DNA of 64,000 bases, from assembly GCA_964344175.1 (NCBI GenBank), contig CAYFMI010000010.1, positions 243 through 64,242 on the forward strand, given 5' to 3'. Positions 9,956-42,552 of this stretch are shown one piece after another. Source of the DNA: an uncultured Anaerolineales bacterium (GTDB lineage Bacteria; Chloroflexota; Anaerolineae; Anaerolineales; UBA11858). The stretch's first letter is position 1. Each line of letters opens with the position of its first letter. Under the pieces are notes generated by a model. It was not told the DNA's origin. It made no database searches and worked only from the letters and a program-made list of their open reading frames with translations. A program made the position numbers and the translations under genes.

Positions 9956-11194
9956 TTATCCGCAACCGCCGCCCGATGGGGCGCGTTTCAGTTCGAGTTT
10001 GATCTTCCTCTCGAATTCCATCTCATGGGCAAGATCAAGATCAGGGTAAGCAGCCGGGCAGCCAGAGCCGAGGGCGGCGGTGAATTCATAGCGCAGTTCA
10101 TCATCGGCGCCTGCTTTGATGCCACCGCAGAAATCTTCTTCAAATTCGGTGCCAAAGATGTCTAGCCAGTTGTTGATGCCCCCCTCGAGGATATACACAT
10201 TGGGAACCGATTCGGCGACCATGTGTTTCCATACATCCGTGGCAGAAGTTTCGTCATTACTCATCACCACGAAGACAGTATTGGCGGGTTGCGCAATGAA
10301 TTCGTCGATATGACGGCTAATTTCAGTGGGGAGGATATTTTCAGCATCGAGTAGATGGAAAAGATTATAGTCTGCCTCGCTGCGTACATCGATCATGATG
10401 ATATTCAATTTATGATCGTGCCAGCTTTCCAGCAGTTCGCCGGGGTGGATCTGAAATTGGCGGGCTTCCAGGGCCGGGCCTTTTTCAGGGAGTAAGCGTT
10501 CCCAGCGGTCTTCGGTCGTCGGCTGGCCGACAAAAATCAGACCGACCGCCACCAATACCAGCGCACCGGCGCCAAAATAACGCGCCTTCGGCGCTTTTTT
10601 AGGGTCGATCCCGCCGTAGATTTTCTCGAGTTGTTCGCCACCCCAGAACATAAACAGCGCCATTAACACAACGAGGAGTACTACCCACCCTGTAGGTAGG
10701 CCTAAAAACTCAGGCAGGGTGAAGCGTCCCATATACGATGAGTTGAAAAAAATGTCGTACAAATCTACGCTTTCGCCAAAAACGAAGATCCCGAAGATGG
10801 TACCCAGGGCAAAAAAGATACCGTCAATTTTTAATGTGGCCGCACCGACCAGCGAAGTGCCTGGTCAGTAACCGCCAACGATGAACCCGATCCCCATTAT
10901 GAAGCCGCCAATAATCCCAGGCCAGAGATAAGTGGGGTTGACATAGATCAGGTTGTAATCTAATAATCCAATTGCTGATGCCGAAAATACCAGTACCATC
11001 GCCACAATGATGGCAGTGAACATGACCTTAAGTACGGTCAGGTTCTTGAAGTAAAACTGAGCCGCCAATAAGGGGGAGTTCGCAAAGCCAGAGATTTCGA
11101 GGACATAGCCAAAGGCAAAACCAATCATCAAGAAAACCAGATTGACGCCAATGGGTAGGAATATTTCTGCGAGAGGGAGAGGGAATGGAGACAT
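9956..11194 (-). CDS. YeeE/YedE-family sulfur/selenium transporter half fused to TM segments and a rhodanese-like domain; needs in-frame UGA (10865-10867) decoded, candidate selenoprotein
   Basis: ORFs 10865..11194 and 9956..10762 share one frame, and all 34 codons between them are sense. The TGA falls in GFIVGGY-[TGA]-PGTSLVG. The sequence after the TGA continues as a hydrophobic helix, IDGIFFALGTIFGIFVFG. The rhodanese fold contains IIMIDVRSEADY...ILEGGINNW. The alternative model is two separate genes. Confidence 0.5.
10837..10851 (-). other. candidate bacterial SECIS stem-loop (UGGUC-GGUGC-GGCCA) 13 nt 3' of the UGA
   Basis: It was read on the minus strand. The stem is 5 bp including one G-U pair, and the loop is GGUGC. 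A second possible hairpin, GACCAG-N8-CUGGUC, includes the UGA itself. Confidence 0.25.
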
Positions 11195-11206: not shown

Positions 11207-11779
11207 TTAGTTCCATAGTTTGCGCACAAAATAGGCCAGAGCATAGGCGCCGCCAAATACGGCAAACATAAAAGCCCAGCTTCCTGTGGAAAGTACCGCG
11301 CCGCCAGAAAGCGCTTGCCCCGAGGTGCAGCCGCGCGCCAGACGGGCGCCAAAGCCCATGAACGCCCCGCCAACAAAGGCCATCAGCCAGCGTTTGCGGT
11401 TTGATATATTCGGTCCTTTACCGGTTTCGGGCTTGATGCGTCCATGTAGCCAGCCGGAGAAGAAACCGCCAAGAAGCACGCCGGTGGTTACAAAGACGAT
11501 CCACGAATCGAGCGGGTTCTTGCTGCCGCCAGCCATCGCCAGGAGATAGGGCGTTAGGTCAACGTGCTTAGGGGCAATCAAATCTTCGAAGAAAACCAGA
11601 AAGCGATTCAGTCCGCCTGAGGCCCCTAGGCCGCTCCCGGTGATGAAGAACGACAGAAATAACACGACACCAAGTACCGCGCCCCCCAGGTATGCGTTGA
11701 CGTGATCTTTCTTTTCGCGTTGAAAAATGAACTTTTTCAACGCCGAGGCTTTCTTGGGTGAATGAGTTGCAGTTGTCAT
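11207..11779 (-). CDS. YeeE/YedE family membrane protein (sulfur-transport domain)
   Basis: The 190-aa polytopic protein has the motif GARLARGCTSGQALSGG typical of the family. It lies directly upstream of the second YeeE-like ORF. Confidence 0.7.
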   Translation of the reverse strand: MTTATHSPKKASALKKFIFQREKKDHVNAYLGGAVLGVVLFLSFFITGSGLGASGGLNRFLVFFEDLIAPKHVDLTPYLLAMAGGSKNPLDSWIVFVTTGVLLGGFFSGWLHGRIKPETGKGPNISNRKRWLMAFVGGAFMGFGARLARGCTSGQALSGGAVLSTGSWAFMFAVFGGAYALAYFVRKLWN

Positions 11780-14538
11780 TCTTGAGATTCCTCCTCGGCT
11801 GGGGCATGTACTTCAACTTCGTCCCAGCCCATCATCATAGCTTTGATGCCGGCCATTGGGGTATGACCGGTCGTTGTCAGGTAAACGTGCATCACAATAA
11901 ACGATGCGAACATCCAGGCGACCAGGGTGTGGAAAGGCCCCAAGAAAGGCAGCCCACCCAAACTTTCCGCGATACTGGGCCAGCGTTGCGCGCCCCAGAT
12001 GAGAATGCCGGTGATTCCTTGCAACGGCAGCAGTACATTCAGGATGCCGAAATAGGTCACTTGTTGGAGTGGGTTGAGTTTTCGGCGGGTCGTTTTCTCA
12101 AAGGGATGTTCCGCTCCTTTGAAGATGCCGTTCAGGTAAAATTTTGTCTGGGTGATGGCTTGGTCGAAGAAACCGCGCGGTCTAGGAATGTATTGTTGGA
12201 TTTCGCCGCTGACCAGGTGGTAGAACAATGACAAGGCTGCGTTTATCGCCAGGATGGCGGCGACGATGTTGTGGACGATGACAACCCCGCGGAAACTAAA
12301 CATGCCGAAAGTGTCCGGTTTGTGGATAATCAACCCGGTGAAGAGCAAAAGTACAATGGCGAAGGTTTGCAGCCAATGCCACAGCCGCTCGTAGACGGTA
12401 TACATGTACACGTTTTCAATGCGCGCCTCATGTGTTGGTTGCCGCATTGAAGAATACACACGTAAGCCGCCGTGGGCTACGATCCCTAGCAGAACGCCCA
12501 TAAACATTAGCGATCCGGCCAGGTCTATCCACCCAAGGTTGTTGTGTCCGAGAATGTATAAGTCATTCTGATCGGTATCGGGCCGATAGAACAATGCGCC
12601 GCTTTCATCGGTGTAGATCTCGCCGTCGAGAATTGTGTTCGTATCATTAACGAATTCAGGCATCACACTGCCGGGCGCGTATGACGATAGTTGAATTGGC
12701 TGAGTAATGCGGGATTGTGCACCATGGCAGGCGGCGCAATCTTTCAGCGCCCCATCGCCGCCGACAACATTGTGATTGATGCTGTAGGGTTGCACTTCGC
12801 CTACAATGCGGGGATTCCCCAACCCGATGCGTGTCAGACGGTCTTTGATGAACTGTTCTTTCTCCGATGTATCTATGAGTAGTTCACTTTCATCAAGACT
12901 TCCATCCTGGTTTCCATCGAAGCGCAGCAGTACACCGGGGAGATAATCGCCATTTTCTACATATGCCGCTTGCAAGTCATCCATTCGTACAGGGCGAGGA
13001 GGGTCGCCATAGACCCAGAACCAGGTGGTGATCAAGTTGTGGGGGGCCAGACTGTTGCCACCATCGACATCGGTGCTGGGGAGCAAGACGGGTTCGTACC
13101 CTACCATCAGCGACCGCATGGTATCCTCATCGCCCTCGATGCCGCGACATTCTGTGGCTGCCTGGCCTTCGAGGGTTATCACTGTCCAGTCGTGCTGCAT
13201 ATTCGATGATGAGTACATTTGCGGTATGTGGCAACTTTCGCAGCTAATTGCGGTCATATGGCGGTCTTTGTAAGGCAGCCATTCGTGTGTGTTTTCTACG
13301 CTATGGCAGGAGGCGCACCGCCGCATGGTGTCTTTTAATTCTGGGGCCACCGTGCCCTGGGCGCTATTGCCGCGGGCAAATTGATGGAGCGGCTTTTCAA
13401 GGTAGTCACCAATTTCCAGCCGACGGGGATCGAAGAGCAAGTGTTCGGGCAGTGTACTTTCAGACTCGCGGAAGTAGAGCGGGTTGTTAAGCGAATAGTG
13501 GCAATCGGTGCAGTTTAGCAGGCGTTCTGCGTGCACATCCCAGGGGCGGTTGAGCGTTTCTTTGTTTGCCAGGTTCATGCCCGAATCGGCTAGTTTTTGC
13601 GGTGAGATGATTTGCCCGGTTGTGATGGTGCTCCAGCGTTCGGCAGAGCAGCCCAGCATGACGAGAGGATCTTCTACGTTGTCATGCACCAGACCGTGGC
13701 ACAAGCCGCAATTATCGTTGGTGGGATCTTGAATGATGGGGAGTTCCGCCGAGAGTTCGCCCTCGGTGTTGAAGGCTGCCGCGTTCCAGGTGTAGGTGTC
13801 GCCGCTTTGTTCAACGATGCCGGTTCCCACCAGGGTGGCGGTATTGGCCCAGCCGAAGTTGCCGCGTTGAATCGCTTCTACGCGGGTTTCGTTGTTGGGG
13901 GAGGGAATATGGCAAAGGAAGCAATTCATCTCGATAACGCCGGATGCGCGCCAATCCCAGCCGACCATTTCGCCGGTGTCCTCATCGATGGTAGCTGTCT
14001 CTGGGTTGGTTGGATCAACCTCGAGGCTGGTCAGAGGTTCCCCGCTTTGGGCGTAAATGGCAGGTCCGCCACCGACGTGCCGCGTCCCATAGAGTTGAAT
14101 CCACATCGGGGTGGTTAAGTCAATCCGTTCATCTCCCGCCGGTGAGAGATAGCGATAGCCAATCGAATTCCACTTCCCGAAAAATCCGGGGCTGATATCC
14201 CAGGCGCGTTGGCTGGTGGTTGTGCCGGGTTCGGTGATTTCGTGCAGCCCAATGCTGGCATGGAAACTATGCTGTTCGATGAAATCGGCATTGTGGCAGG
14301 CCCCGCAGGTTTGCATGGTGGATACTGCCGCTCCTGAATCGAGAACGTTGACGCCATTCTCGTCGAGGAAGGGGAAGGTGGGGTGGATGGGGGAGAGTTG
14401 TGGGGCGGTGTTGATTGCTCGCTTGGCTTGGGCGAAGTCCCTCGTGACCAAAACTGCCGCGAACAAGAGCATCACTGCCATGCCGATGAAGATGATTCGT
14501 CGAGTTTTTCGTGGACGAAAGGTAGGTTTTGTTGGCAT
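11776..14538 (-). CDS. heptaheme c-type cytochrome fused to a C-terminal diheme-type cytochrome b (FdnI/PhsC/HydC-like) membrane domain
   Basis: The N-terminus is a signal anchor. There are 7 CxxCH motifs (CGACH, CFLCH, CGLCH, CTDCH, CASCH, CESCH, CAACH). The C-terminal TM helices carry YERLWHWLQTFAIVLLLFTGLIIH and further conserved His residues. Confidence 0.75.
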   Translation of the reverse strand: MPTKPTFRPRKTRRIIFIGMAVMLLFAAVLVTRDFAQAKRAINTAPQLSPIHPTFPFLDENGVNVLDSGAAVSTMQTCGACHNADFIEQHSFHASIGLHEITEPGTTTSQRAWDISPGFFGKWNSIGYRYLSPAGDERIDLTTPMWIQLYGTRHVGGGPAIYAQSGEPLTSLEVDPTNPETATIDEDTGEMVGWDWRASGVIEMNCFLCHIPSPNNETRVEAIQRGNFGWANTATLVGTGIVEQSGDTYTWNAAAFNTEGELSAELPIIQDPTNDNCGLCHGLVHDNVEDPLVMLGCSAERWSTITTGQIISPQKLADSGMNLANKETLNRPWDVHAERLLNCTDCHYSLNNPLYFRESESTLPEHLLFDPRRLEIGDYLEKPLHQFARGNSAQGTVAPELKDTMRRCASCHSVENTHEWLPYKDRHMTAISCESCHIPQMYSSSNMQHDWTVITLEGQAATECRGIEGDEDTMRSLMVGYEPVLLPSTDVDGGNSLAPHNLITTWFWVYGDPPRPVRMDDLQAAYVENGDYLPGVLLRFDGNQDGSLDESELLIDTSEKEQFIKDRLTRIGLGNPRIVGEVQPYSINHNVVGGDGALKDCAACHGAQSRITQPIQLSSYAPGSVMPEFVNDTNTILDGEIYTDESGALFYRPDTDQNDLYILGHNNLGWIDLAGSLMFMGVLLGIVAHGGLRVYSSMRQPTHEARIENVYMYTVYERLWHWLQTFAIVLLLFTGLIIHKPDTFGMFSFRGVVIVHNIVAAILAINAALSLFYHLVSGEIQQYIPRPRGFFDQAITQTKFYLNGIFKGAEHPFEKTTRRKLNPLQQVTYFGILNVLLPLQGITGILIWGAQRWPSIAESLGGLPFLGPFHTLVAWMFASFIVMHVYLTTTGHTPMAGIKAMMMGWDEVEVHAPAEEESQE

Positions 14539-14637: not shown

Positions 14638-16086
14638 TCAGGGCTGATAGCTGTTCGAGCGGAAGCGTCCGCCCCAGTCGATGGGGTCGCCATAATAGCC
14701 GAGGGCTTCCCAATCCATGCGGCCGTTTTCGCCGTGACAGTTATCGCAGGTTAATGCGTCGGAGGCCGGGCTGACCATGTGAGTGGTCGGCCAGTACATT
14801 TCAGTTTCGGCAAAATCGTATTGACCGCTGTAATCGAGACCGACGATTTCAGAGCCAAGCGCCAGCGCTTGATCCCAGTCGAAATCATGCCAGAACCCAC
14901 CTTCCCCGTAGGTAACCGGTTGCAGCAGGATGTTGTAGACGGCATCGTAGGGCTGCTTGGCACGATGGACTTTGAAGGGCCAAATTTTTGCCCCCGGGTC
15001 GGTAATATCCCCATTGGGTATATTGATCGGTGTGGAGACGGATGGATCCATCACATCGCCGAAGATATAGCGACCGGCGGTGCCGTTGTACCAGGCAAAT
15101 TCAGGCTGGAAGTTGGAAGTGTATACGAAGCTGCCCTTGATTTTTAAATAATCGTGAACATTTTCTTCGATGTCGTCGCTGCCAGCGGTGGACCAATCCC
15201 AGTACATTTTTGTGGCATCGCGCGTGGCAGCAACCGGGATGTGACAAGTCTGGCAGGCAACGGCCTGAACATGAGCGTTGATGCGGTCATCTTCGTGGAG
15301 GTCTTCATTATGACAGTCGGTACAGTAAATTTGGTTGGTATTGTCCAGGCTGACAGAAATTGAGCGGCCGCTGATGTTGTGGGCTTCGGTTTGGTGGCAG
15401 TCAGTGCACAAGAAATCGTGCTTGCCCATATGAACATCGACGCTTTCGGGAGGAAAGTAGAGGGTTTCATCAAGGTCGCCGTGTTTTACTGCGTTACCGC
15501 CCCCGCCATTGAAATGACAGCCACCACAGTTTTCGCGCGTTGGCATCGCTACGCTTTGGGCGGCGGTCAGCAGGTCAACGCCTTCAGCAGGGTATCCCGC
15601 AGCGCTTTTTACATAGATGCCGGAGTTGTCGTGGCATACCAGACAGTCAATATTCTCTTGATTCGAAAAATCGAAATTGGCATCATCCCATCCATACCCG
15701 GCATGGCAGGATGTGCAACCTGCCCAGTTGCCTTGAATGCCAATGCAGAAGTTGTTGATCGAATTTTTCTTGCCAACGGTTATGGGGCCATCGCGCCCGG
15801 GCAGGGTGTAGGGTTCGCTTTCCCATGTCCAATGGGCTGTTTGCATGACTTCGAACCCGGCATTTTCGTGACATTCCAGACAAGCACGGGTGACATCAGA
15901 CCCGTTTTCGTAGGGGCCTTCGATGATGTCGCTATGGTCGGTGTGCGGAATTCGAAGAGGGACATTCTCCCAGGGCGCATCGTTAGTTTGTTTTTCGCCG
16001 TTGGTAGTGAAAATGACAATAGGGACGATAAGGATTGTCAATGTGATCGTTAATCCTAACAACCAGATAAATTTTAAGTTTTTCAT
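14638..16086 (-). CDS. octaheme c-type cytochrome, tetrathionate reductase (Otr)-like family, copy 1
   Basis: A signal anchor is followed by 8 CxxCH motifs. The N-terminal signature is CLECHENAGFEVMQTAHWTW. It is a paralog of 43171..44718. Confidence 0.65.
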   Translation of the reverse strand: MKNLKFIWLLGLTITLTILIVPIVIFTTNGEKQTNDAPWENVPLRIPHTDHSDIIEGPYENGSDVTRACLECHENAGFEVMQTAHWTWESEPYTLPGRDGPITVGKKNSINNFCIGIQGNWAGCTSCHAGYGWDDANFDFSNQENIDCLVCHDNSGIYVKSAAGYPAEGVDLLTAAQSVAMPTRENCGGCHFNGGGGNAVKHGDLDETLYFPPESVDVHMGKHDFLCTDCHQTEAHNISGRSISVSLDNTNQIYCTDCHNEDLHEDDRINAHVQAVACQTCHIPVAATRDATKMYWDWSTAGSDDIEENVHDYLKIKGSFVYTSNFQPEFAWYNGTAGRYIFGDVMDPSVSTPINIPNGDITDPGAKIWPFKVHRAKQPYDAVYNILLQPVTYGEGGFWHDFDWDQALALGSEIVGLDYSGQYDFAETEMYWPTTHMVSPASDALTCDNCHGENGRMDWEALGYYGDPIDWGGRFRSNSYQP

Positions 16087-16190: not shown

Positions 16191-16556
16191 TTACTTTGAA
16201 TTGGTGGCTTCTTCGACAAGGTAAGCACGATGGGTCAGCCGGTCGTATAGGACAGTGCGCAATAAATCCAATGCTTCGATAAGACGCTTATCGCTGAGGC
16301 GATATTCAACACTAGCGCCTTTGCGGGTGGCGCTAACCAGCCCGCGCTGGCGAAGGATTTTCAAATGCCTGGAAGTGGCAGGCTGGCTAATGCCGATAGA
16401 ATCGGCCAGGTCGCCGACGCTCCAGGGGCGCTCGGCAAGCTGATAGATCATCAATATTCGCCTAGGATCTGCCAGGGCAGAACAGATTTCTGCGTGGAGT
16501 TGATTGATTTCTTGAACGAGATCAGATTTTGTCATGGGTATCATAGCCTTATTCAT
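16191..16556 (-). CDS. ArsR/SmtB-family transcriptional regulator, copy 1
   Basis: The HTH region is LADPRRILMIYQL...VGDLADSIGISQPATSRHLKILRQRGLV. The protein has a single Cys (EICSAL). An internal ATG (Met8) is an alternative start. Confidence 0.8.
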   Translation of the reverse strand: MNKAMIPMTKSDLVQEINQLHAEICSALADPRRILMIYQLAERPWSVGDLADSIGISQPATSRHLKILRQRGLVSATRKGASVEYRLSDKRLIEALDLLRTVLYDRLTHRAYLVEEATNSK

Positions 16557-16896: not shown

Positions 16897-17808
16897 TTAG
16901 ATCAGGGGATAGGGGTACGGTAAATCCAAAATAAATTCCCAGAAAGCACTTTGAGCAATGGTGGTCGGGCGGTTGGTATTACGCCCAATGTAAATATTGC
17001 GGTGGATATTTAGGCCATCAATTTGGATGGGCACTACCCGCCCATAGCCAAGCTTGCGAACGATGATCTCGGACACAAAGCCAACGCCAAGCCCTTCTTG
17101 CACCGCGAGTGCAATCGCTTCGGAATTCCCTAACGTCATGAGAATGTCGAGGGAATTTGTATTCACATCAATTTCGGATAAGGCGGCGTTAACAACAATA
17201 TAGGTGCCGGAATCGATTTCCCTCATCAGGAAATTTTCTTCGAATAACTCTCCGGGCTGGATGATCCCTCTCTGCGCCCAGGGGTGCTCGTTTGGAACAA
17301 TGAGGCTGATCGTGTCTTCGAGAAATTTATGAAATTCAATATTCTTGCAAGGCACTCCCGTTTCACTGGTCAGGGCAAAATTAACGTGGCCCAGGCTGAG
17401 CATTTCAATAGCTTGCGATTGGGGAGATACCTGGCAGGTGATACGGACTTTTGAATATTCGTGGTGAAATTTCGTCAACAAATGGGGGAGGATATATTTC
17501 CCGGGGGTTGTGCTACACCCAACGATGAGATGCCCAAAAACCTCGCCCTGGAGCGATGCCATTGTTTCCTCGATATGAATCGAGTGTCTGACCATTTCCC
17601 TTGCCAGCGGCACAAGCGTGATGGCCGCGTCGGTTAATTGCAAACTACGTGTAGAGCGGATGAAGAGGGGTACTTGAAAATACCGCTCTAGCGCCTGGAT
17701 ATGCTGGCTGACACTGGGTTGGCTCATTCCTAGTTGTTGAGCCGCCTGCGTGAAATTCAGTGAATCAGCTGCAGCTAAAAAGACATTGAGTTGATGGGCA
17801 TCTAACAT
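16897..17808 (-). CDS. LysR-family transcriptional regulator, copy 1
   Basis: The N-terminal HTH is LNVFLAAADSLNFTQAAQQLGMSQPSVSQHIQALE, followed by a LysR substrate-binding domain. ATG 17808 is preferred over the track start TTG 17835. Confidence 0.8.
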   Translation of the reverse strand: MLDAHQLNVFLAAADSLNFTQAAQQLGMSQPSVSQHIQALERYFQVPLFIRSTRSLQLTDAAITLVPLAREMVRHSIHIEETMASLQGEVFGHLIVGCSTTPGKYILPHLLTKFHHEYSKVRITCQVSPQSQAIEMLSLGHVNFALTSETGVPCKNIEFHKFLEDTISLIVPNEHPWAQRGIIQPGELFEENFLMREIDSGTYIVVNAALSEIDVNTNSLDILMTLGNSEAIALAVQEGLGVGFVSEIIVRKLGYGRVVPIQIDGLNIHRNIYIGRNTNRPTTIAQSAFWEFILDLPYPYPLI

Positions 17809-17854
17809 AATATCGCTCTGTTCAAATGATAACAACCCTTTATATTAGCAAACA

Positions 17855-19399: not shown

Positions 19400-19435
19400 T
19401 TTTGTAGCAATATCAAAATTATTAAGGAGATGATT

Positions 19436-21127
19436 ATGAAAAAGAAGCTACACGTTGTTCTCTCAGTGCTTGTTCTCGCGAGCATGCTGGTAGCAGCAAT
19501 GCCTGTATTTGCGGATTCGCACATGGCAGACCTTGATGCTCCCTATAGCGCAATGTTGGGCAGTATGGTGGGCTATAACACCGTCAAAGCCGATGGTTTG
19601 CTGGTTGAGATGGCCGAAGATGAGCCGCCTTTCTTGCTCGATGTTCGTACCACCCCTGAGCTGGAAGAGAACGGCCACATCGAAGGGGCTGTGCATATCC
19701 CCTTGGCTGAATTGGCCCAAAATCTCGATTTGTTGCCTGCCTTCGATACCCCCATTGTGACCTATTGTGGCAGTGGCTGGCGTGCCACCATTGCAATGAC
19801 ATCGCTCTACGCGCTGGGGTGGGCCGATGTGCGTGCGCTCAAGACCACATTCGCTGATTGGGTAGGAGCGGGTAATCCGGTTGCTGAAGGTGTTCCCGAA
19901 GTTGTTGCTTTGAATGCAGCCGAGCCCGATGTTGAAGCAGTTGCGCTTGTGGACGCTGCCCTGGCGGCTTATGGCGTTGCTCCCTACGGTGTCATTGATG
20001 CCGAAGGTCTCAATACTGCTTTGGTAGAAGACCCCGAAATGGTTATTATCGACGTGCGCACCCCCGGGGAATGGACAGGTAAGGGTGTGATTGACACCGG
20101 TGATGTTGAACTGATCAACCTGCCTTTACAGCGATTTGTTGCCCAGAAAACTCTATGGCCTGTCGATAAAGACACCCACATTGTTGTCTACTGCGGTAGT
20201 GGGCACCGTTCCACAATGGCGATGGCTATTTTGTGGACCTATGGATATACCAATGTCTCCAGCCTGAAAGGTGGATTTGGTGGTTGGACAGAAGCAGAAT
20301 ATGCTGCTGTTGAGTATGCTGCGCCAGATTTTGCCACGCCTTATGCAGATATGCTAGCCAATATGGCTGGTTACAATACGGTTAAGGCGGATGGTTTACT
20401 GGTCGAGATGGCTGAAGATCAACCGCCCTTCTTGCTTGATGTGCGCACTACCCCTGAGCTGGAAGAAAACGGCCATATCGAAGGGGCGGTGCATATTCCC
20501 CTGGCTGAACTGGCTGCGAACCTGGATCTGTTGCCCGCTTTTGATACCCCCATCGTAGCTTACTGCGGCAGCGGCTGGCGTGCCACCATTGCCATGACCG
20601 CGTTGCATGGTATGGGTTGGACTGATGTGCGTGCCCTCAAAACAACCTTTGCTGATTGGGTGGCGGCTGAGAACCCAGTTGTCGAGGGTGTTCCTGAAGC
20701 CGTAGCCCTGGATGTTGCCGAAGTGGATCCCAAGGTGGCCGTTTTCAAAGATGCTACTCTGGGCGCTTTTGGTGTCAAGCCTTATGGTGTTCTCACTGCA
20801 GATGTGCTGAACACGGAGTTGGTCGAAGATCCTGAGATCATTGTGATTGACGTTCGACGCACAGATGAATTGGAAGAGAATGGCGTCATTGATGTTGGTG
20901 AAGCGACTCTAGTTCACATTCCGTTGGAAGAGTTCATCACTCAGTTGGAGAGCTGGCCTGCAGAGAAGGATGCCCATATTGATGTCTACTGCGGCAGCGG
21001 ACACCGCTCTACAATGGCAATGGAGATGTTATGGGCCTTTGGGTACACGAATGTCTCTAGTTTGAAGGGTGGCTTTGGCGGATGGGTAGAAGCTGGATAC
21101 CCGGTTGCTGAATACGTTGCTCCCTAA
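19436..21127 (+). CDS. exported protein with four rhodanese domains (thiosulfate/persulfide sulfurtransferase-like)
   Basis: The signal peptide is LVAAMPVFA/DS. The four active-site loops are YCGSGWRATIAM (two copies) and YCGSGHRSTMAM (two copies). An AAGGAG RBS lies 6 nt before ATG 19436. Confidence 0.8.
   Translation: MKKKLHVVLSVLVLASMLVAAMPVFADSHMADLDAPYSAMLGSMVGYNTVKADGLLVEMAEDEPPFLLDVRTTPELEENGHIEGAVHIPLAELAQNLDLLPAFDTPIVTYCGSGWRATIAMTSLYALGWADVRALKTTFADWVGAGNPVAEGVPEVVALNAAEPDVEAVALVDAALAAYGVAPYGVIDAEGLNTALVEDPEMVIIDVRTPGEWTGKGVIDTGDVELINLPLQRFVAQKTLWPVDKDTHIVVYCGSGHRSTMAMAILWTYGYTNVSSLKGGFGGWTEAEYAAVEYAAPDFATPYADMLANMAGYNTVKADGLLVEMAEDQPPFLLDVRTTPELEENGHIEGAVHIPLAELAANLDLLPAFDTPIVAYCGSGWRATIAMTALHGMGWTDVRALKTTFADWVAAENPVVEGVPEAVALDVAEVDPKVAVFKDATLGAFGVKPYGVLTADVLNTELVEDPEIIVIDVRRTDELEENGVIDVGEATLVHIPLEEFITQLESWPAEKDAHIDVYCGSGHRSTMAMEMLWAFGYTNVSSLKGGFGGWVEAGYPVAEYVAP
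19535..21127 (+). repeat. tandem intragenic duplication (about 798-bp unit, two copies) of a two-rhodanese module
   Basis: Unit A begins at 19535 and unit B at 20333. Long stretches are near-identical at the DNA level, for example GATGGTTT.CTGGT.GAGATGGC.GAAGAT... Confidence 0.8.
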
Positions 21128-27341: not shown

Positions 27342-28274
27342 ATGAAAAAAACTGTTCTATTTCGATGGATAGTTGCCGTATTATTTGCGGTTCCTTTTGT
27401 GTTTGTAGCCGTTGCTGGTGTGCAAGCAAGCACACTTCTCGATGAAACTCCGGTTGATCCGGGTTGTCAAGAATGCCATCCGGCTATTCATGGTGCCTGG
27501 AAAAATAGTCACCACGGTCAGGCGATGACAGATCCAAATTTTGCTGCTGCCTGGGAAGAACAAGGCCAACCCAACGAATGTCTTCCCTGCCACACAACCG
27601 GGTATGATCCCATAACGCGAACTTGGGAGTCAGATGGCATTACCTGTGAAGCATGCCATGCCCCTATGCCGTCCAACCACCCAGATCAGCCGATGCCAAC
27701 TGATCGATCGGCCAGCCTGTGTGGAGGCTGCCACCAAGAAACAGTCTTGGAATGGAAAGTCAGCCACCACCATCAAGCGGAACTAACCTGTGTGGATTGC
27801 CACGGGCAACACTCAACTTCCCTGAAGGGGCAGGATGCCCAAGCGCTGTGCTCAAGCTGCCATCAAGAGCGTGTTTTAGATTACACCCACTCAGCGCACA
27901 GTATGGAAGGTCTCTTGTGTGCCGATTGTCACCTGGGTTCTACCGGTGAAGTCGCTGGTGAAGGGCATGCCTTGAAAGATCACAGCTTCCATGTGAATCT
28001 ATCAACCTGCACGGATTGCCACGCCGATGAAATGCACGACCCCGTAGGAGCAGTAGCTTCGGTTTCCAATGATGATAATAGCTCATCAGGGCCGAAGCTA
28101 GATGCCATGGCTGCAGTTACCGATTTGGGTGTGAGCGCGGTGCCCGATCCGATCAGCCCGATATACTATGCATTGATTGCAGGGTTGATTGGCATGGCAT
28201 TTGGTTTGTTGGTTGCTCCCTGGGTAGAGCGCTGGTATCGCAGCCTCGATCAGCGCACCCGTGTAGATGAATAG
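27342..28274 (+). CDS. octaheme c-type cytochrome with signal peptide and C-terminal TM anchor
   Basis: The 8 CxxCH motifs are CQECH, CLPCH, CEACH, CGGCH, CVDCH, CSSCH, CADCH and CTDCH. The C-terminal helix is IYYALIAGLIGMAFGLLVAPW. Confidence 0.8.
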   Translation: MKKTVLFRWIVAVLFAVPFVFVAVAGVQASTLLDETPVDPGCQECHPAIHGAWKNSHHGQAMTDPNFAAAWEEQGQPNECLPCHTTGYDPITRTWESDGITCEACHAPMPSNHPDQPMPTDRSASLCGGCHQETVLEWKVSHHHQAELTCVDCHGQHSTSLKGQDAQALCSSCHQERVLDYTHSAHSMEGLLCADCHLGSTGEVAGEGHALKDHSFHVNLSTCTDCHADEMHDPVGAVASVSNDDNSSSGPKLDAMAAVTDLGVSAVPDPISPIYYALIAGLIGMAFGLLVAPWVERWYRSLDQRTRVDE

Positions 28275-28292
28275 GGGAGAGCGAGGTGCATT

Positions 28293-29066
28293 ATGACAAA
28301 GAAAAATGAGAGCTTGAATCGACGTGACTTCATCAAAATTATGGTGGGCGGCGGTGCTACCGTTGCCAGCCTGAAAGCTGCTAAATCCGTTTCGGCTTCA
28401 CATCCCGACGGCAGCAGCCCGCATCGTTGGGCTATGGTGATCGACCAGGGCAAATGCGAAGGTTGTGGTTTTTGCACCCTGGCTTGCCAGGCGCACAATG
28501 ATATCGCACCAGATATTTCTTGGAACCGGGTGATTGAGTCGTCTGAAGTCGATGGCAAAAAATGTTACCTTGCCCGCCCTTGTATGCAGTGTGAACATGC
28601 CCCATGTGTGGATGTGTGTCCGGTGGGCGCCAGTTATTATCGGGCGGATGGGATTGTAATGATGGATTACGACCTTTGTATTGGTTGCCGCTATTGTGAG
28701 GTGGCCTGCCCCTATAATGCCCGATCCTTCAATTGGCAAGCCTTCACTGGTGAAAACCCGGCGGTTCCAGATTGGGGTGAACCCGAAGTGGAGCGTCGTC
28801 CGCGCGGTGTCGTAGAAAAATGCTCATTTTGCTATCACCGCATTGACCGCGGCCTGGCCCTGGGGCTGACCCCCGGTGTGGATCCAGATGCCACCCCAGC
28901 CTGTGTTGTCGCTTGCCCTGTTGGGGCCAGAGTGTTTGGTGATCTCAATGATCCAGACTCTGAGGTGAGTCAAATTGTGAAGAACCGCGTCACCCATCGT
29001 CTGCGTGAAGATCTTGGAACCGGGCCGCGGGTGTACTACATTTGCCCCGAGAGCCAGGAGGCATGA
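28293..29066 (+). CDS. Tat-exported 4Fe-4S ferredoxin-type subunit (NrfC/PsrB/DsrO/HmcB-like)
   Basis: The Tat motif is NRRDFIK. There are four Cys clusters: CEGCGFC..C, CMQCEHAPC..C, CIGCRYC..C and CSFC...CVVAC. Confidence 0.8.
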   Translation: MTKKNESLNRRDFIKIMVGGGATVASLKAAKSVSASHPDGSSPHRWAMVIDQGKCEGCGFCTLACQAHNDIAPDISWNRVIESSEVDGKKCYLARPCMQCEHAPCVDVCPVGASYYRADGIVMMDYDLCIGCRYCEVACPYNARSFNWQAFTGENPAVPDWGEPEVERRPRGVVEKCSFCYHRIDRGLALGLTPGVDPDATPACVVACPVGARVFGDLNDPDSEVSQIVKNRVTHRLREDLGTGPRVYYICPESQEA

Positions 29067-29067
29067 T

Positions 29068-30321
29068 ATGAATATCAAACGCTTGCTTCGCAACCTAACT
29101 AAATTCCACTACTGGCTGGTCGGGCTGACGATAGTAATGGTGGCCGGGGTGATCGGCGCTCTGATTGTCTTTGTAAAGGGGTTAGTCGTCACCAACTTGA
29201 CCGACCTGGTTCCCTGGGGCCTATGGATCACAATTGACCTGTCCTCGATTGCCTTGAGCGCAGGGGCATTTACCTTGTGTGCAGCGGTCTATCTGATTGG
29301 CCTGAAAGAGTATCAACCGGTAGCGAAGACAGCCACTTTTATTGGCATTATCGGCTATAGCATGGCCATGCTGTGCTTGCTGCTAGATATTGGCCGTCCC
29401 GACCGCTTCTGGCATGCCTTTGTGTTTTGGAACGTACACTCAGTGCTGTGGGAAGTGACCATGTGCGTTGGGTTGTACTTCACCGTGCTGACCTTAGAAA
29501 CCCTGCCGATCATTGGCGAAGCCGAGTGGTTCCGCTCGCGTTGGCCGAAACCAGCCAAGTGGATGACGAAGATTCACCATTATGCGCCTTATCTGGCGAT
29601 TGCTGGTTTGTGTCTTTCGATGCTGCATCAATCATCGTTGGGCGCTACCTATGGTGTGTTGAAAGCACGCCCGCTGTGGTATTCCCCCAGCTTGTCGGTG
29701 CTGTTCATGTATTCGGCTATTGTCGGCGGTATTTCGTTGACTATTCTAAGTTCGATGATTGCGGCCCGCCTGAGTGATAAAGCGAATGTGATCGATTCAC
29801 TTTTAGAGAAGTTAGCGCATTTCGTTGGTTGGGCCTTGGTGGGCTATCTTTATTTCCGATTTTGGTATGCCTTCTCGATGACCTATACCTATGAGCCTGG
29901 ACGCACCGAGGGGTTGAGACTGCTCACGAAGGGGCCGCTGGCTTTCAACTTCTGGCTGGGTGAGATCATTCTAGGGGCGGTTGTTCCCATTGTGATCTTA
30001 CTTAAGAAAGATTGGCGGGCGCGCCCCTGGTTGCGCATGGTGGCTTTAGGGCTTGTCGTGGGTGGCTTAGTTGCCTATCGTTGGGATACGAACCTTTCAG
30101 GGCAATTGGTGATCTTAACCTACCTCCACAACGAAATCAGCACTTTATATACCAGCTATGTGCCCTCGTTGATTGAAATTGTTGTTGGGGGAGGGGTTGT
30201 AGCCTTTGGGTTGATGGCGTTCACTTTGGGGGTGCAATTCCTCAAGGTAGTAGACCACTCTTCGGAAGAAGAACCCGCGCTGGGGTCAGCAGTGGAGGCT
30301 ATCCCTCTTTCCGGAGATTAG
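29068..30321 (+). CDS. NrfD/PsrC/DsrP-family polytopic quinone-interacting membrane subunit
   Basis: The product has about 10 TM helices. ATG 29068 follows an AGGAGG RBS and the upstream TGA at 29064. Its position after an NrfC-like gene fits the family. Confidence 0.7.
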   Translation: MNIKRLLRNLTKFHYWLVGLTIVMVAGVIGALIVFVKGLVVTNLTDLVPWGLWITIDLSSIALSAGAFTLCAAVYLIGLKEYQPVAKTATFIGIIGYSMAMLCLLLDIGRPDRFWHAFVFWNVHSVLWEVTMCVGLYFTVLTLETLPIIGEAEWFRSRWPKPAKWMTKIHHYAPYLAIAGLCLSMLHQSSLGATYGVLKARPLWYSPSLSVLFMYSAIVGGISLTILSSMIAARLSDKANVIDSLLEKLAHFVGWALVGYLYFRFWYAFSMTYTYEPGRTEGLRLLTKGPLAFNFWLGEIILGAVVPIVILLKKDWRARPWLRMVALGLVVGGLVAYRWDTNLSGQLVILTYLHNEISTLYTSYVPSLIEIVVGGGVVAFGLMAFTLGVQFLKVVDHSSEEEPALGSAVEAIPLSGD

Positions 30322-30438: not shown

Positions 30439-32142
30439 CTATTCGCTCTTTTCGGGTGCTCCTAATTGGATCCACTCAAAAACTCGCGTCAGTTCATCGT
30501 TGTTAAACTGCCCAAAATGGGGTTGCTCGCCGGTTTGTTTCGTGATGAGCAGGCTGTTCTCCGGATCTCCAGGAATCACCGCCGGGCCGCCATCACCCCC
30601 CGCCATTGTGGCCTCATAGGATGTCAGACTGAGGCCTTCCACACCATCTTCTCCGTGGCATGTCCCACAACGTAATTCGAGCAGGGGGGCAATTGTGTCT
30701 TCGTAGGTGAGGGGGCCTCCCGTTGGAAGTTCGGGTTCAGGTGGGGGCGGGGGCATCTGTTCCAGAAGAATTGCGCGCAGTTTGGGCGCGTTGAACCCGG
30801 CATATTCCCAAACGTTGCCATGACAGGCGCTGTTCGAGCAGAAGGATGTATTACTCACGCCGCCCGGATCCTCGGTGGTGTGGCAGTTTTGGCAGGTGTA
30901 GTCGAATACGTCGCGGTGCAGGCTGATCCAATTGGCGTTGAGGTGGGTTTCAGGTTCCGGGCCGCGGCTGATCTCGATGTTCGCAACAAAATCTGAAGCG
31001 CTGCTAACAATTGGAATTGAGTGACAAATATTGCATTCCAGTCGAATGGCTTCTTCTTGTTCGTTTAGATGTTTGCCATCATGACAGCGAAAACAGCCTG
31101 GCGAGTATTCATGACCAATATTGTTGGGGTGGGAATTCCAATCGGCTTTTTGTTCGGGATATACGCTCTGGGCATAGGCATCTTGCAGCGCTGTAATGGC
31201 ATTCTCAACCAGCAGGGCATTCTCTGCATAGAAATCGGGGAGGTATGTCTCGTAATAATCGGTCAGACCCGCAATTGCAGCAAGCCCGATTTCTTTGGTT
31301 TGGTAATCACGGTAAAGGATTTCGATGGCTAAACGGCGAATCTCAGGAATGGAAGTCGAAACCACGCCGCGTTCCATGAGTTGATCGAGAATATCTTCGG
31401 GGTGGTAAACAAGGTGTGAAATGCGGTTATGGCAAGTGATGCAATCCATCTCCTGAAGGTCTTCTTCATTGATGGTGGATGAGTCTATTTCGGCTTCGAC
31501 GTCCAAATATTCCGTAATTGTGCCATCCTCGGCGACGATTTGAATATAGGGAATTACTTGCCCGGCATCATCCGTTGGTAAATAATACACCGGATTTTCA
31601 ATATGCCAATGGATGCCCTGTCCTAAGCCTAGTCGCTTTGACCCGCCGCCGGTTTTCATAATCAGGTATGTAGATACTGCTGTGTTGTCAAAATCACTCT
31701 GGAATTGCCTGATTTCGCGCAAGCTGTCGTCGGAGAATTTTTCGGGGAAATGGCACAGTTCACAGGTATCACGCGATGGCCGCAACTCGTGTGCTTCAAT
31801 GGGGTACTCGTAATCTTTAAAGAGTAAAGAAATGATATGCTTGGCGTCTCCGGCTTTGCGGGTAATTCGAGTAGCAATAAAACCGCGCCCAATATGGCAA
31901 TCCACACAATCAACACGGGCATGAGGGGAAGTAAGGTAGGATGTGTATTCCGGTGGCATGGTGTGACACGCCGTGCCACAGAATTCGGGAGAATTGGTAT
32001 ATTCCCAAGCATACGCCCCGGAGATCAGAACAATTAATGTCAAGCCTCCTAATACAGCATAGGGCAAGATCCTCTGCCATCGGGGTGTACCTTCAGGGGG
32101 AAAGAAGAATTGTTTAAGCCAATTTGCGAAGCGTTTGCCCAT
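30439..32142 (-). CDS. membrane-anchored NapC/NirT/NrfH-like multiheme cytochrome with extra heme domains (9 motifs)
   Basis: It has an N-terminal TM helix. The heme motifs are CGTACH (CX3CH), CVDCH, CELCH, CITCH, CFRCH, CNICH, CQNCH, CSNSACH (CX4CH) and CGTCH. The last motif lies in a class-I-like C-terminal domain. Confidence 0.7.
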   Translation of the reverse strand: MGKRFANWLKQFFFPPEGTPRWQRILPYAVLGGLTLIVLISGAYAWEYTNSPEFCGTACHTMPPEYTSYLTSPHARVDCVDCHIGRGFIATRITRKAGDAKHIISLLFKDYEYPIEAHELRPSRDTCELCHFPEKFSDDSLREIRQFQSDFDNTAVSTYLIMKTGGGSKRLGLGQGIHWHIENPVYYLPTDDAGQVIPYIQIVAEDGTITEYLDVEAEIDSSTINEEDLQEMDCITCHNRISHLVYHPEDILDQLMERGVVSTSIPEIRRLAIEILYRDYQTKEIGLAAIAGLTDYYETYLPDFYAENALLVENAITALQDAYAQSVYPEQKADWNSHPNNIGHEYSPGCFRCHDGKHLNEQEEAIRLECNICHSIPIVSSASDFVANIEISRGPEPETHLNANWISLHRDVFDYTCQNCHTTEDPGGVSNTSFCSNSACHGNVWEYAGFNAPKLRAILLEQMPPPPPEPELPTGGPLTYEDTIAPLLELRCGTCHGEDGVEGLSLTSYEATMAGGDGGPAVIPGDPENSLLITKQTGEQPHFGQFNNDELTRVFEWIQLGAPEKSE

Positions 32143-32238
32143 TGCGAGATGCTCCTCTTTGTTTACTGGTAAAAAGAGTCGATTAATATGTAATTTATAC
32201 CATGACTATCGGATGACAATCGTCGCAAAATAGAGAAT

Positions 32239-32294
32239 AAACATCTTAAAAAATCGAGCGGCATAATTATGCCGCTCGATTTTTTAAGATGTTT
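32239..32294. terminator. 56-bp perfect palindrome (26-bp arms) downstream of the cytochrome b/c gene
   Basis: AAACATCTTAAAAAATCGAGCGGCAT-AATT-ATGCCGCTCGATTTTTTAAGATGTTT, verified base by base. Confidence 0.6.
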
Positions 32295-32321
32295 AGCTGG
32301 TTATCGGTTTGCTTGGAGAAA

Positions 32322-33479
32322 TTATTCTTCCGGCGCGCCTGCTAAAATCCATTCGATGATGAAATCTAACTCTTCTTCCGAGAATTGACCAGGGTGACTG
32401 CCGGCCACCTGTACACTCACTAATCGACTGGCGTTAGGGTCTTCCGGAATAATCGCCTCGCCGGAAACCCCACCTTCCATGGCGCTCTCGTATGAACTCA
32501 GGTCGAGACCTCCCATTGCGGCTGCACCGTGGCAGGATGCGCATTTATCATCAATGATAGATGCGATACTTTCAGCCCACGATAAGCCGGAAATCGGTGC
32601 TGGAGTGGGGGTTGGCATCGGGGTCGGTAATGGCGTCGGTGTGTATGGAGAGAATACGACCACCGACTCGGCAGGGGGAACCGTTTCTAAGGCGGTTTCT
32701 TCACCATTTACGAAGAAGAAAACCCCGGCAAGCATAACCACGGCAGCGACCCCATAAACGGGGAAGAATATCTTCTTCCGTTTAGCTATTGCTTTGGGGT
32801 CTTGAGGAATTTCGGCAATGCCGGCTTTGATATCGGCAAGTTCTAGAGGATGCTCTTCGAGCATTTCGTGTTCAGATATATAGCCGGTGAACATGCTCTT
32901 GTTCAAATGTTTTATGTGGACATTATAGAAGTGCCAGATGATGATCGCCAGAACGGCCAACAAAGCTTCACCGCTGTGCGCGGCCTTTGCCGCTGGGATT
33001 GCCATTCCGGGGAGGAAACGCGCTGTGGAAATTGGATTCCAAAGCATAAACCCGGTAATGCCCATCACAAGGGTGCCCCAGACAAAAGCCCAGTATTCAA
33101 ATTTCTCGTCAAAGGTGAAACGTCCTTGTTGGGGTTTTTCTTCTTGGAAACCTAAGTTATGCATGAAGATGCCCCAGGCAGCTGTGACATCCTGGATGGT
33201 GGGAAGCATAGTAATGCGAGATCGTTTGACGTAATATTTATACCCTGCAGCGCCAAGATGGTAAATTGTGCCCAGCATAAGACCTACCGAAGCAACCCGA
33301 TGGATGATGCGCACAGATTCAATTCCACCTAACCCGGCGATGATCGAAATCGATATTTCAGCTCCAGAATATTTTTGAATCAAGCCGGTGAGTCCCAGTA
33401 ATCCAAAGCTAATCACTTGAATCCAGTGCTCGATGCGATCTGAGATTGAAAAACGGAGGTATCTACGTTCTTTACTCAT
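32322..33479 (-). CDS. cytochrome b (FdnI/PhsC-like) membrane protein fused to a C-terminal monoheme cytochrome c domain
   Basis: The N-terminal motif is RFSISDRIEHWIQVISFGLLGLTG, followed by 4-5 TM helices with conserved His. A Pro/Thr linker leads to CASCH in a domain homologous to the C-terminus of 30439..32142. Confidence 0.7.
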   Translation of the reverse strand: MSKERRYLRFSISDRIEHWIQVISFGLLGLTGLIQKYSGAEISISIIAGLGGIESVRIIHRVASVGLMLGTIYHLGAAGYKYYVKRSRITMLPTIQDVTAAWGIFMHNLGFQEEKPQQGRFTFDEKFEYWAFVWGTLVMGITGFMLWNPISTARFLPGMAIPAAKAAHSGEALLAVLAIIIWHFYNVHIKHLNKSMFTGYISEHEMLEEHPLELADIKAGIAEIPQDPKAIAKRKKIFFPVYGVAAVVMLAGVFFFVNGEETALETVPPAESVVVFSPYTPTPLPTPMPTPTPAPISGLSWAESIASIIDDKCASCHGAAAMGGLDLSSYESAMEGGVSGEAIIPEDPNASRLVSVQVAGSHPGQFSEEELDFIIEWILAGAPEE

Positions 33480-34588
33480 TTTCGCCCCCCTATCTTATCT
33501 GAGATTTTCTTTTTAATATCGGCGCCGATAAACACGAGCATGCCTCCAATCGTCACAGGGATAATGATCTTGTAAAAAAGATCAATAAAGAACACCAAGG
33601 GAGCCTCTGTTGGGCTTGGTTCATAGTGCCCTAGCCACGACGTCGGGAAGTTTGTTGTGGCATTGGGGTGGCATTTTTGACAAGTGGTTAACAAATTCTT
33701 CTTGATGACATAGCTTTCTGGGTCATCCACTTTACGCATGTCATGCACGCCATGACAATCGATGCAGACAGGCTTGTTGGTCTCTTGGTCGGGCGTCAAT
33801 TTCTCGAAGAGGACAACCGTTGTGCCGTGGAAATCGGAAACGTAGGTATCGAAAACATGGGTGCTGATATCGTACCGTGCCATGAGTTCAGGATCGGCGT
33901 GGCAGTCGGCGCAAATTTGGGGCGAGAATAAATGAAAAGACTCGCTCGTAGATGGCCCTTGGAGACTGTGGACACCGTGGCAGTCTGTGCAGGTGGGGAC
34001 ATCGGGGTTCCCTTCACCAATTAACGCGGAGCCATGTACACTGCTGGCATACGAGCGGTAAATTGTTGAGTGGCAGCGTTCACACATTTTCGGGATATTG
34101 CTGCGAGGTGGCTCTGGCTCACTGATATTATGTGTCCCATGACAGTCGGTGCAAACTGCAGCTTCGGGGTTGCCAGCCTCAAGAGCTTGTTGGTGTGTGC
34201 TGTCGTGGGTGTCCTCATAATTACTTTGATGGCATTGCTCACAGAGGGTGTACATGGCCAATGTATATTCACGCACGGTTGTCGCAGGTATCTCGCGATG
34301 TGGATATTCTCGAATGTCGGTGTGACACTGGACACAGGCATAACCGTTCCGACCATGTACAGAAGTTGCATGTGTCACACTATCAACAGCGATATAGAGA
34401 ACTTCGCCGGATTCTAGGGTGGTGCGCAACCCTGGTGTATCATGGCAGGAAAGGCAATATTCGTCTTCTACGCCGGGGAGATTTTCCTCTGCCTGGGCAT
34501 AACTGGGCGGAACGAATAATATTCCGAGTAGAGATAGTACCCCTATGAGTGGTAGTATTTTATGTTTTGCTTTCAAAGCATCCTCCAA
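33476..34588 (-). CDS. nonaheme c-type cytochrome with signal peptide and C-terminal TM anchor
   Basis: There are 9 CxxCH motifs. An ATGA overlap couples it to the downstream cytochrome b gene. Confidence 0.8.
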   Translation of the reverse strand: MEDALKAKHKILPLIGVLSLLGILFVPPSYAQAEENLPGVEDEYCLSCHDTPGLRTTLESGEVLYIAVDSVTHATSVHGRNGYACVQCHTDIREYPHREIPATTVREYTLAMYTLCEQCHQSNYEDTHDSTHQQALEAGNPEAAVCTDCHGTHNISEPEPPRSNIPKMCERCHSTIYRSYASSVHGSALIGEGNPDVPTCTDCHGVHSLQGPSTSESFHLFSPQICADCHADPELMARYDISTHVFDTYVSDFHGTTVVLFEKLTPDQETNKPVCIDCHGVHDMRKVDDPESYVIKKNLLTTCQKCHPNATTNFPTSWLGHYEPSPTEAPLVFFIDLFYKIIIPVTIGGMLVFIGADIKKKISDKIGGRK

Positions 34589-42521: not shown

Positions 42522-42552
42522 AGAAGTTTCTCCTGTATGTGTAAGAATGTAG

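Follow-up and report, generated by a model that had tools for sequence, protein, structure and literature searches.

A gene on the minus strand of a 64,000-nucleotide stretch of DNA from an uncultured Anaerolineales bacterium (Chloroflexota; assembly GCA_964344175.1, contig CAYFMI010000010.1; the whole stretch is called the window here) is interrupted by an in-frame UGA. In the public annotation, the region 9956..11194 is split into a 'hypothetical protein' of 109 residues and a 'rhodanese-related sulfurtransferase' of 258 or 298 residues. The two annotated fragments are very probably one selenoprotein, in which the UGA at codon 110 would be decoded as selenocysteine (Sec).

Translation of 9956..11194 resulted in a single frame of 412 codons plus a stop codon, with the TGA at 10867..10865 as the sole internal stop. 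The open reading frames (ORFs) 10865..11194 (109 residues, ATG start) and 9956..10762 of the minus strand were thus found in the identical frame, interrupted by this TGA only, as had been claimed in an initial annotation made from the sequence without database searches. The TGA is located at codon 110 in the context GFIVGGY-[UGA]-PGTSLVGAATLK, and the frame segment after it has also been written as GFIVGGY-[UGA]-PGTSLVGAATLKIDG. The sequence AAGGAA is present upstream of the start at 11194, and GAGGAGG upstream of the partner gene described below. On direct inspection, no Shine-Dalgarno sequence was identified before TTG 10762 or before ATG 10732, the start chosen by gene callers; the absence of this element had previously been stated for the TTG, and it is absent from the ATG likewise. 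The membrane domain had been claimed to be complete only after read-through; the match to PF04143 covers residues 44-191, and the UGA is located in the middle of the half-channel domain.

The predicted position of the UGA at a conserved cysteine was confirmed with the 120 best full-length homologues (395-428 residues, 64-75% identity), which originate from metagenome-assembled genomes (MAGs) of Anaerolineales and other Chloroflexota. All of them are single-chain proteins, and the UGA column is occupied by Cys in 120 of 120, in the almost invariant motif G-F-I-x-G-G-F-C-P-G-T-S-L. The motif G-Y-C-P-G-T given earlier for this family was right in its conserved Cys and wrong in its Tyr, as the Cys forms read G-F-C-P-G-T. 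In many Sec forms, Tyr is the typical residue before this position. In two loci with Cys-type orthologues, P0003 and P0023, the same operon order was identified as in the window (ArsR-type regulator, octahaem tetrathionate reductase (OTR), multihaem/cytochrome b protein, PmpA-like protein, PmpB::rhodanese), followed by the same FemAB and polysaccharide genes. This marked the window gene as an orthologue which carries UGA in exchange for Cys.

The motif GFIxGG[FY]-TGA-PGT, back-translated with the Cys codon replaced by TGA, was used for a scan of public collections. Matches were obtained in 25 GTDB species-representative genomes and on 70 metagenome contigs, 95 in total, so that UGA-containing orthologues, for which a search had been proposed, were indeed present. 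By chance, about 0.03 matches would be expected in the genome collection, calculated from the number of specified bases. The 25 genomes belong to Acidobacteriota/Terriglobia, Anaerolineales/Chloroflexia, KSB1, Latescibacterota, Krumholzibacteriia and Thermodesulfobacteriota. On either side of the TGA, the frame remains open in every one of the 95 loci, and downstream it continues for 88-330 codons unless the contig ends; the open stretch comprises 88-108 codons in stand-alone forms and about 300 in forms fused to the rhodanese-like domain. Protein conservation runs on through the TGA site in these loci, and the motif [F/Y]-U-P-G-T is found in all 95 and in the window. The TGA is no assembly error, since independent assemblies agree: the 1824-bp gene pair of the ENA contig was recovered with 100% identity from three Logan runs of the same project, which were assembled independently and contain it at full length, and from a fourth Logan contig over the covered 1702 bp.

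The closest Sec-type relatives of the window gene, with about 90% amino acid identity, are L030 (from an Anaerolineae MAG) and L088. Compared to these, the window gene shows saturated synonymous sites, with a synonymous substitution rate (dS) of 1.3-2.9. The ratio of the non-synonymous rate to this value (dN/dS) was 0.016-0.025 upstream of the UGA and 0.024-0.05 downstream. In the 34 codons from the UGA to the putative TTG start, about 19-20 synonymous differences were found versus 4.5 non-synonymous ones in the same comparison, and this stretch is under purifying selection. On the basis of the recurrence and the low dN/dS downstream of the UGA, a recent nonsense mutation and an independent downstream translation were taken to be excluded.

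For the RNA, the published constraints on the bacterial selenocysteine insertion sequence (SECIS; bSECIS for the bacterial type) were used with an energy threshold of -7.5 kcal/mol (PMC13188914), together with an alignment of 64 distinct Sec-type sequences which is gap-free over 51 nucleotides (nt) from the UGA. In most of the 64 sequences a hairpin was identified, with a 6-bp stem (columns 18-23 and 28-33) and a four-base loop, examples being GGUGGC-GGUC-GCCAUC, GGUCGC-GGUC-GCGACC, GGUAGC-AGUU-GCUACC and GGUUGC-CGUG-GCAACC. The helix cells are paired to 92%. At the synonymous-site pair, which is formed by the third positions of the Val codon at +6 and the Ala codon at +9, GC occurs 36 times, CG 20 times, UA three times and AU once. 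The covariation score was 0.315 versus 0.097 ± 0.014 for shuffled alignments, with none of 500 reaching 0.315, and all slid controls were lower. The isolated family hairpins fold at -7.3 to -9.6 kcal/mol, and with 20 nt from the UGA to the loop and a loop beginning with G-G-U or A-G-U they conform to the published bSECIS constraints (PMC13188914). For all 64 sequences together, the consensus obtained with RNAalifold was weak, owing to the mixture of two hairpin registers.

A GU is present in the loop of 61 of the 64 Sec sequences. In the fused clade, the residues at +7/+8 are A-L in 108 of the 120 Cys forms and in none of the 12 Sec forms; the latter carry A-V, G-A, G-S or S-S, each encoding G-U in the loop. 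Judged from these alignments, the loop is the feature which separates Sec from Cys forms, and the protein sequence has been bent to what the RNA requires, since the +7/+8 residues of the Sec forms all write G-U into the loop. The G-A group comprises the window gene, L030 and L088, with a shifted hairpin. In the window, the stem begins 13 nt after the UGA, the distance from the UGA to the loop is 18 nt and the GU is found at nt 20-21, so that the register is offset by about three columns from that of the family hairpin, whose position it overlaps. The weak stem-loop which had been noticed 13 nt 3' of the UGA was confirmed and lies, at 10851..10837, where the family has a conserved covarying hairpin. 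We take the GU at nt 20-21 to be comparable to G23/U24 of E. coli fdhF. Third-position conservation over the window hairpin consisted of an 8-codon run, which was not significant and to which similar runs exist elsewhere in the gene.

A neighbor-joining tree revealed that Sec forms are interspersed among Cys forms in at least 3-4 groups. This, together with the retention of the hairpin in the closest Cys orthologue, suggests a repeated Sec/Cys exchange in the family. In that orthologue (P0001, locus L108, 75% identity), the SECIS-like hairpin GGUUGC-UGUC-GCGACC is kept at codons +5 to +10, with Val at +8, and folds at -13 kcal/mol with its flanks. A recent conversion from Sec to Cys may have left it behind.

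Among the components for Sec decoding, only selA is encoded in the 64-kb window, and its presence, which had been stated before, was verified with a specific model (see the table). Near the other Sec loci, ARAGORN identified neither a tRNA nor a tRNA-Sec, and a nearby selA was likewise absent. A reassignment of TGA was ruled out, since TGA terminates 12 of the 35 longest ORFs of the window.

Profile searches with the product of the window gene were carried out with Cys placed at the UGA codon. The PF04143 (Sulf_transp) match scored 51.3 bits (cut-off 27) and covers profile positions 11-156 of 310. Residues 22-133 align with YeeE of Spirochaeta thermophila (StYeeE; 6LEO, 8K1R) with E = 3.5e-5 (phmmer and family profile), and U110 is aligned to the Cys of ...LAGGCASG..., which is Cys91 of StYeeE. 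The position of YeeE Cys22 is occupied by Ala in the window protein and by Asn or Ala in the homologues. From the outer to the inner side, the pore of YeeE is lined by Cys293, Cys91 and Cys22, all of which matter for function (PMC11073785). Two further hydrophobic transmembrane (TM) helices follow the half-channel. By these matches, the window protein represents the PmpB-like (N-terminal) half of a YeeE/YedE sulfur channel that is split in two, and its most likely partner is the PmpA-like half, whose gene lies immediately upstream. For this sister gene the previously noted GCTSG was found as RGCTSG, and its Cys is kept in 75 of 75 copies (window plus loci L001-L108, several of which duplicate the window gene). 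Sec110 would then take the place of Cys91, the central and essential Cys of YeeE, with the Cys293 equivalent supplied by the partner.

The models for YedE/FdhT (TIGR04112, NF033796) gave 15.1 bits for the window protein (TIGR04112, cut-off 200) and 35.3 bits versus 350 for the partner, and the TsuA/YeeE models (NF052577, NF041049) gave 17 bits versus 400 for the window protein, which is covered by no NCBIfam model. The link to selenium metabolism drawn in the initial annotation applies to YedE/FdhT proper and did not hold here, as the window protein, at 15 bits versus 200, is not a member of that family.

The fused rhodanese domain had been predicted correctly with respect to its fold, which was recognized by PF00581 and also by 6MXV (E = 3e-9). 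The catalytic Cys, however, is replaced by Ser in the active-site loop M-S-N-D-E, both in the window protein and in 116 of the 120 homologues. The active-site Cys of a catalytic rhodanese sulfurtransferase was thus absent from the window protein and likewise from the stand-alone partners. Other Cys residues are conserved in the C-terminal part, with Cys356 found in 117 and Cys379 in 120 of the 120 homologues, in addition to the invariant penultimate Cys411. The GGCG(G) end of the tail presumably resembles the carrier arm of SoxY.

At stand-alone Sec loci of other phyla, the next gene downstream codes for the same module as a separate protein, in which a basic N-terminus is followed by a single TM helix, then by a Cys-less rhodanese-like domain and, at the C-terminus, by a Cys. 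The tails of the separate modules end in ...SGGCGG, ...GRGCT, ...KLKGC or ...PEGGC, and some carry a poly-Lys tail. A periplasmic location of the rhodanese-like module is suggested, by the positive-inside rule, from the basic N-termini of the stand-alone proteins and, in the window protein, from a basic loop (DPKKAPKAR) that precedes the last TM helix.

The coordinates of the features are summarized in the following table.

Table. Features of the probable selenoprotein gene and its surroundings; positions are those of the window except where a locus is named.
Feature	Position	Strand	Description
Probable selenoprotein gene	9956..11194	-	PmpB-like YeeE/YedE half-channel, two TM helices, rhodanese-like domain and Cys-bearing C-terminal tail
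Probable Sec codon, UGA (codon 110)	10865..10867	-	Homologues invariably have Cys here; aligned to Cys91 of YeeE from Spirochaeta thermophila
SECIS-like hairpin UGGUC-GGUGC-GGCCA	10837..10851	-	Stem of 5-6 bp, loop GGUGC or GUG
Alternative 10-bp hairpin UACUGACCAG-GCACUUCG-CUGGUCGGUG	10843..10870	-	UGA in the stem, -15 kcal/mol
Rhodanese-like domain, residues 262-344	10163..10411	-	PF00581, 41.6 bits versus 22.2; Ser312 at the position of the catalytic Cys
Cys411 codon	9962..9964	-	Penultimate residue of ...SGGGCG; invariant in 120 of 120 homologues
PmpA-like YeeE/YedE half (partner)	11207..11779	-	PF04143 profile positions 162-309; Cys of RGCTSG equivalent to YeeE Cys293
Multihaem cytochrome c fused to a cytochrome b561/PhsC-like membrane domain	11776..14538	-	Same operon
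Octahaem cytochrome c, OTR family	14638..16086	-	First structural gene of the conserved operon
ArsR/HTH_5-type regulator	16191..16556	-	Upstream of the operon; kept in Cys-type orthologous loci
selA, L-seryl-tRNA(Sec) selenium transferase	46505..47860	+	TIGR00474, 541.7 bits versus cut-off 267.9
Separate rhodanese-like modules	L016 988..1644; L019 2466..3128; L028 1789..2451; L007 1551..2240	Sec-gene strand	

The OTR-family model TIGR04315 matched two genes of the window, that of the operon with 569 bits and 43171..44832 (-) with 566 bits. OTR is among the families with annotated Sec forms in a 2026 selenoproteome review; both copies in the window are uninterrupted. In other phyla, the neighbours of the Sec gene include NrfD/PsrC-like proteins, 4Fe-4S PsrB-like subunits and multihaem cytochromes. 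At one Acidobacteriota/Terriglobia locus (L019, 386..1849), an N-terminal cytochrome b561-type domain and the PmpA-like half are found in one protein of 487 residues (PF01292 and PF04143), which physically links the channel to a quinol-oxidizing module. A similar ORF of 485 residues is present at another locus of the same group (L013, 5505..6962). The operon of the window joins a YeeE-type channel to a periplasmic octahaem cytochrome of the OTR type, and this link suggests that reduction is coupled to the uptake of a sulfur compound.

Further respiratory modules were identified at 27342..30321 (+) and 30439..34588 (-), including a DsrO/QrcC-like Fe-S protein (215 bits versus 200), a QrcD/NrfD-like membrane subunit, and NrfH-like and decahaem-like cytochromes. 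By its gene content, the window resembles an island devoted to the anaerobic respiration of sulfur compounds. Each of the two OTR octahaem genes is located near a LysR gene, 16897..17835 (-) and 45026..45961 (+), with 220 and 233 bits versus 250 for the model 'selenium metabolism-associated LysR'. About 540 bp downstream of the second of these genes lies selA, with an ORF of 130 residues (46076..46468) in between.

Several observations weigh against the reading given here, most of them concerning the hairpin and the decoding machinery. The peptide V-A-x-A-T alone dictates most of the family stem, and the wobble-wobble position is also paired in five of seven distinct Cys-form DNAs, a small control which is limited to this number because the TGY version of the motif pattern gave no match in viral contigs. 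The window hairpin alone folds at -5.9 kcal/mol, which is weaker than the threshold of -7.5, and its register is shifted. Moreover, the alternative 10-bp hairpin is the minimum-free-energy fold of the free RNA and excludes the SECIS-like hairpin of the window. The loop of this alternative is too near the UGA for the bSECIS model, and a ribosome positioned on the UGA would presumably have melted it, so that the small hairpin could form. The 71-nt region folds no better than shuffled sequences (z = -1.1). With respect to the machinery, ARAGORN identified no tRNA or tRNA-Sec in the window, a scan at gathering thresholds gave no Rfam match in it, selB and selD were not among the window ORFs scanned, and selC was not present in the window. 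At the level of the protein, the membrane part of the closest Cys orthologue was modelled by AlphaFold2 with low confidence (pLDDT 35-55), and the topology, the substrate and the direction of transport are predictions.

These points have to be set against what the competing explanations leave unexplained. The TGA might be due to a nonsense mutation or a sequencing error, or might mark a pseudogene, in which case the transporter would be dead in this strain and the downstream frame a remnant. Such a TGA would require a single base change from TGC or TGT, and this explanation would fit the two ORFs of the public annotation and the weak local hairpin. However, the identical sequences of independently assembled runs, the same TGA kept in synonymously saturated relatives with a downstream dN/dS of 0.02-0.05, and the downstream frame which is always open in 95 loci of several phyla make it extremely improbable. 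Alternatively, the UGA might terminate a fragment of 109 residues, followed by a separate rhodanese protein starting at TTG 10762 or ATG 10732. The internal ATG was chosen by gene callers, and Acidobacteriota, Latescibacterota and others do encode the rhodanese-like module separately, in a downstream gene. In contrast, the UGA is located in the middle of the half-channel domain and not at a domain boundary, and the stand-alone forms also have the UGA, after which 88-108 codons complete the domain. The 34 codons after the UGA are conserved (about 19-20 synonymous versus 4.5 non-synonymous differences), the internal starts lack a Shine-Dalgarno sequence, and all 120 Cys orthologues are single chains of 395-428 residues. 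Two separate products are therefore considered very improbable.

If near-cognate decoding or a local recoding placed a standard amino acid (Cys, Trp or Gly) at the UGA, this would agree with the absence of selB, selC and selD from the window. Such a reading is still quite improbable, since selA, which serves Sec-tRNA synthesis only, is present, the UGA coincides exactly with an invariant Cys as in the classic Sec/Cys pair, the conserved covarying hairpin has a G-U in its loop and forced the amino acid changes at +7/+8, and TGA is a normal stop in the window. Sec decoding might also be accepted and the channel be assumed to move a selenium species (selenite-derived or thiol-bound selenide), like YedE/FdhT. 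In favour of this are the two LysR proteins just below the cut-off (220 and 233 versus 250 bits), the nearby selA, the weak YedE/FdhT match of the partner (35 bits) and the implication of a YedE-like protein in selenium transport in Methanococcus (cited in PMC11582611). Nevertheless, the YedE models failed widely (15 versus 200 and 35 versus 350 bits), Cys-type orthologues exist in the same operon, the operon partners are OTR-, PhsC-, NrfD- and PsrB-like modules for respiration of sulfur compounds, and yedF, selD or another selenium gene is not adjacent. A selenium substrate is regarded as unlikely.

For the preferred reading, a Sec-containing sulfur channel, the following mechanism may be proposed. 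The UGA at codon 110 would be decoded by the SelA/SelB/tRNA-Sec pathway, directed by the small stem-loop which contains GU in the apical loop and is located about 18-20 nt downstream of the UGA. The quinol-oxidizing cytochrome b/multihaem protein would feed the periplasmic OTR-type octahaem cytochrome, and the rhodanese-like module in the periplasm, together with its terminal Cys, would take up the sulfur product of the latter (thiosulfate or a sulfane-sulfur species). This Cys would hand the sulfur species to the channel, in which it would pass from the Cys of the PmpA-like half to Sec110 and then to the cytoplasm. A selenolate at Sec110 would speed up the exchange, which would imply covalent Se-S chemistry and not only a hydrogen-bond relay. 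This relay from the module Cys via the PmpA Cys to Sec110 is put forward tentatively, its chances being judged slightly below even. A more doubtful proposal concerns a sulfur relay of three parts, not described before, which would be widespread among uncultured Acidobacteriota, Chloroflexota and other phyla and wired to quinol-dependent OTR- or Psr-type reductases. In such a relay, a membrane-anchored, Cys-less rhodanese-like module in the periplasm with a SoxY-like Cys arm would be followed by the PmpA-like Cys and the PmpB-like Sec or Cys.

If this were true, transport in the YeeE family would be a covalent chalcogen exchange and not the hydrogen-bond relay which was proposed from the crystal structures of YeeE. 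A selenolate at the central Cys position of YeeE is hard to square with a purely hydrogen-bonding role, and its presence at the central station would argue for covalent Se-S exchange.

Sec-containing YeeE/YedE family members have been catalogued before, with PF04143, the motif GUxSG and the representative WP_012471001.1 (PMC13188914, PMC9312934), and a supplementary table of Peng et al. 2016 contains five Sec YeeE/YedE sequences from five organisms. In the main texts of GOS 2008 and Peng 2016, YeeE is not named, appearing only in the supplementary table; a literature search for DUF395 as a selenoprotein gave no match. The window gene shares with the catalogued proteins the Pfam family, one Sec at a conserved channel Cys and an assignment by Sec/Cys pairing only. 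It is set apart by the published motif, GUxSG compared to GG[F/Y]-U-PGT[S] in the window form, and also by its half-size PmpB-like channel, the fused or adjacent rhodanese-like module and a distribution that centres on uncultured Acidobacteriota and Chloroflexota. No Geobacter or Trichlorobacter is among the 25 genome matches, and the taxonomic range differs from that of the catalogued proteins. Since Cys91 of StYeeE reads G-C-A-S-G, the catalogued Sec may share its structural position with the Sec of the window. The window gene is thus a further member of an already listed selenoprotein family and does not constitute a new category, being itself new and unannotated.

A similar gene organization is known from PmpA and PmpB of Serratia, where two adjacent half-genes each code for one conserved Cys, equivalent to Cys293 and Cys91. 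There, the half-size PmpB matches the N-terminal and PmpA the C-terminal half of YeeE, and both probably form a heterodimer (PMC11582611). PmpB has about 130 residues and a Cys, whereas the window protein would have a Sec and additionally has two TM helices, a rhodanese-like domain, a Cys tail and a respiratory operon. With YeeE/TsuA and YeeD/TsuB (6LEO, 8K1R; PMC11073785), it shares the Sulf_transp fold, the line of Cys residues through the membrane and an accessory sulfur-carrier Cys, and in some organisms the accessory domain is fused to TsuA, as in the window gene. However, TsuA is a single chain of about 340 residues with three Cys, and the window protein is devoid of Cys22. The accessory protein of TsuA is a cytoplasmic TusA-like CPxP protein, whereas that of the window is rhodanese-like, probably periplasmic, and has a C-terminal Cys. 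In the pentahaem polysulfide reductase MccSep/ExtKL of Geobacter sulfurreducens, an experimentally proven Sec in the motif G-U-P acts on sulfane sulfur in anaerobic respiration, which sets a precedent for Se-S chemistry under such conditions (PMC13510729). However, this is a soluble periplasmic multihaem enzyme of unrelated fold and not a transporter.

At least 95 public loci carry the same annotation error as the window gene. This mis-annotation affects the selenoproteome counts for Acidobacteriota and Chloroflexota, two phyla which are not mentioned in the 2026 selenoproteome review.

In the same window, a type III sulfide:quinone reductase is encoded at 41289..42587 (-), with 655 bits versus 525 for an NCBIfam model of the 'selenoprotein subtype'. 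It was ruled out as a second selenoprotein, since the gene is uninterrupted, ends with TAA and has a Cys in ...GHANCYIESG...; from its sequence it is the Cys version of a family with Sec forms. A protein of 565 residues with several rhodanese domains is encoded at 19430..21127 (+); it matches NF041203, 'rhodanese-related (seleno)protein', with 126 bits versus 115, and no in-frame TGA was seen in its gene.

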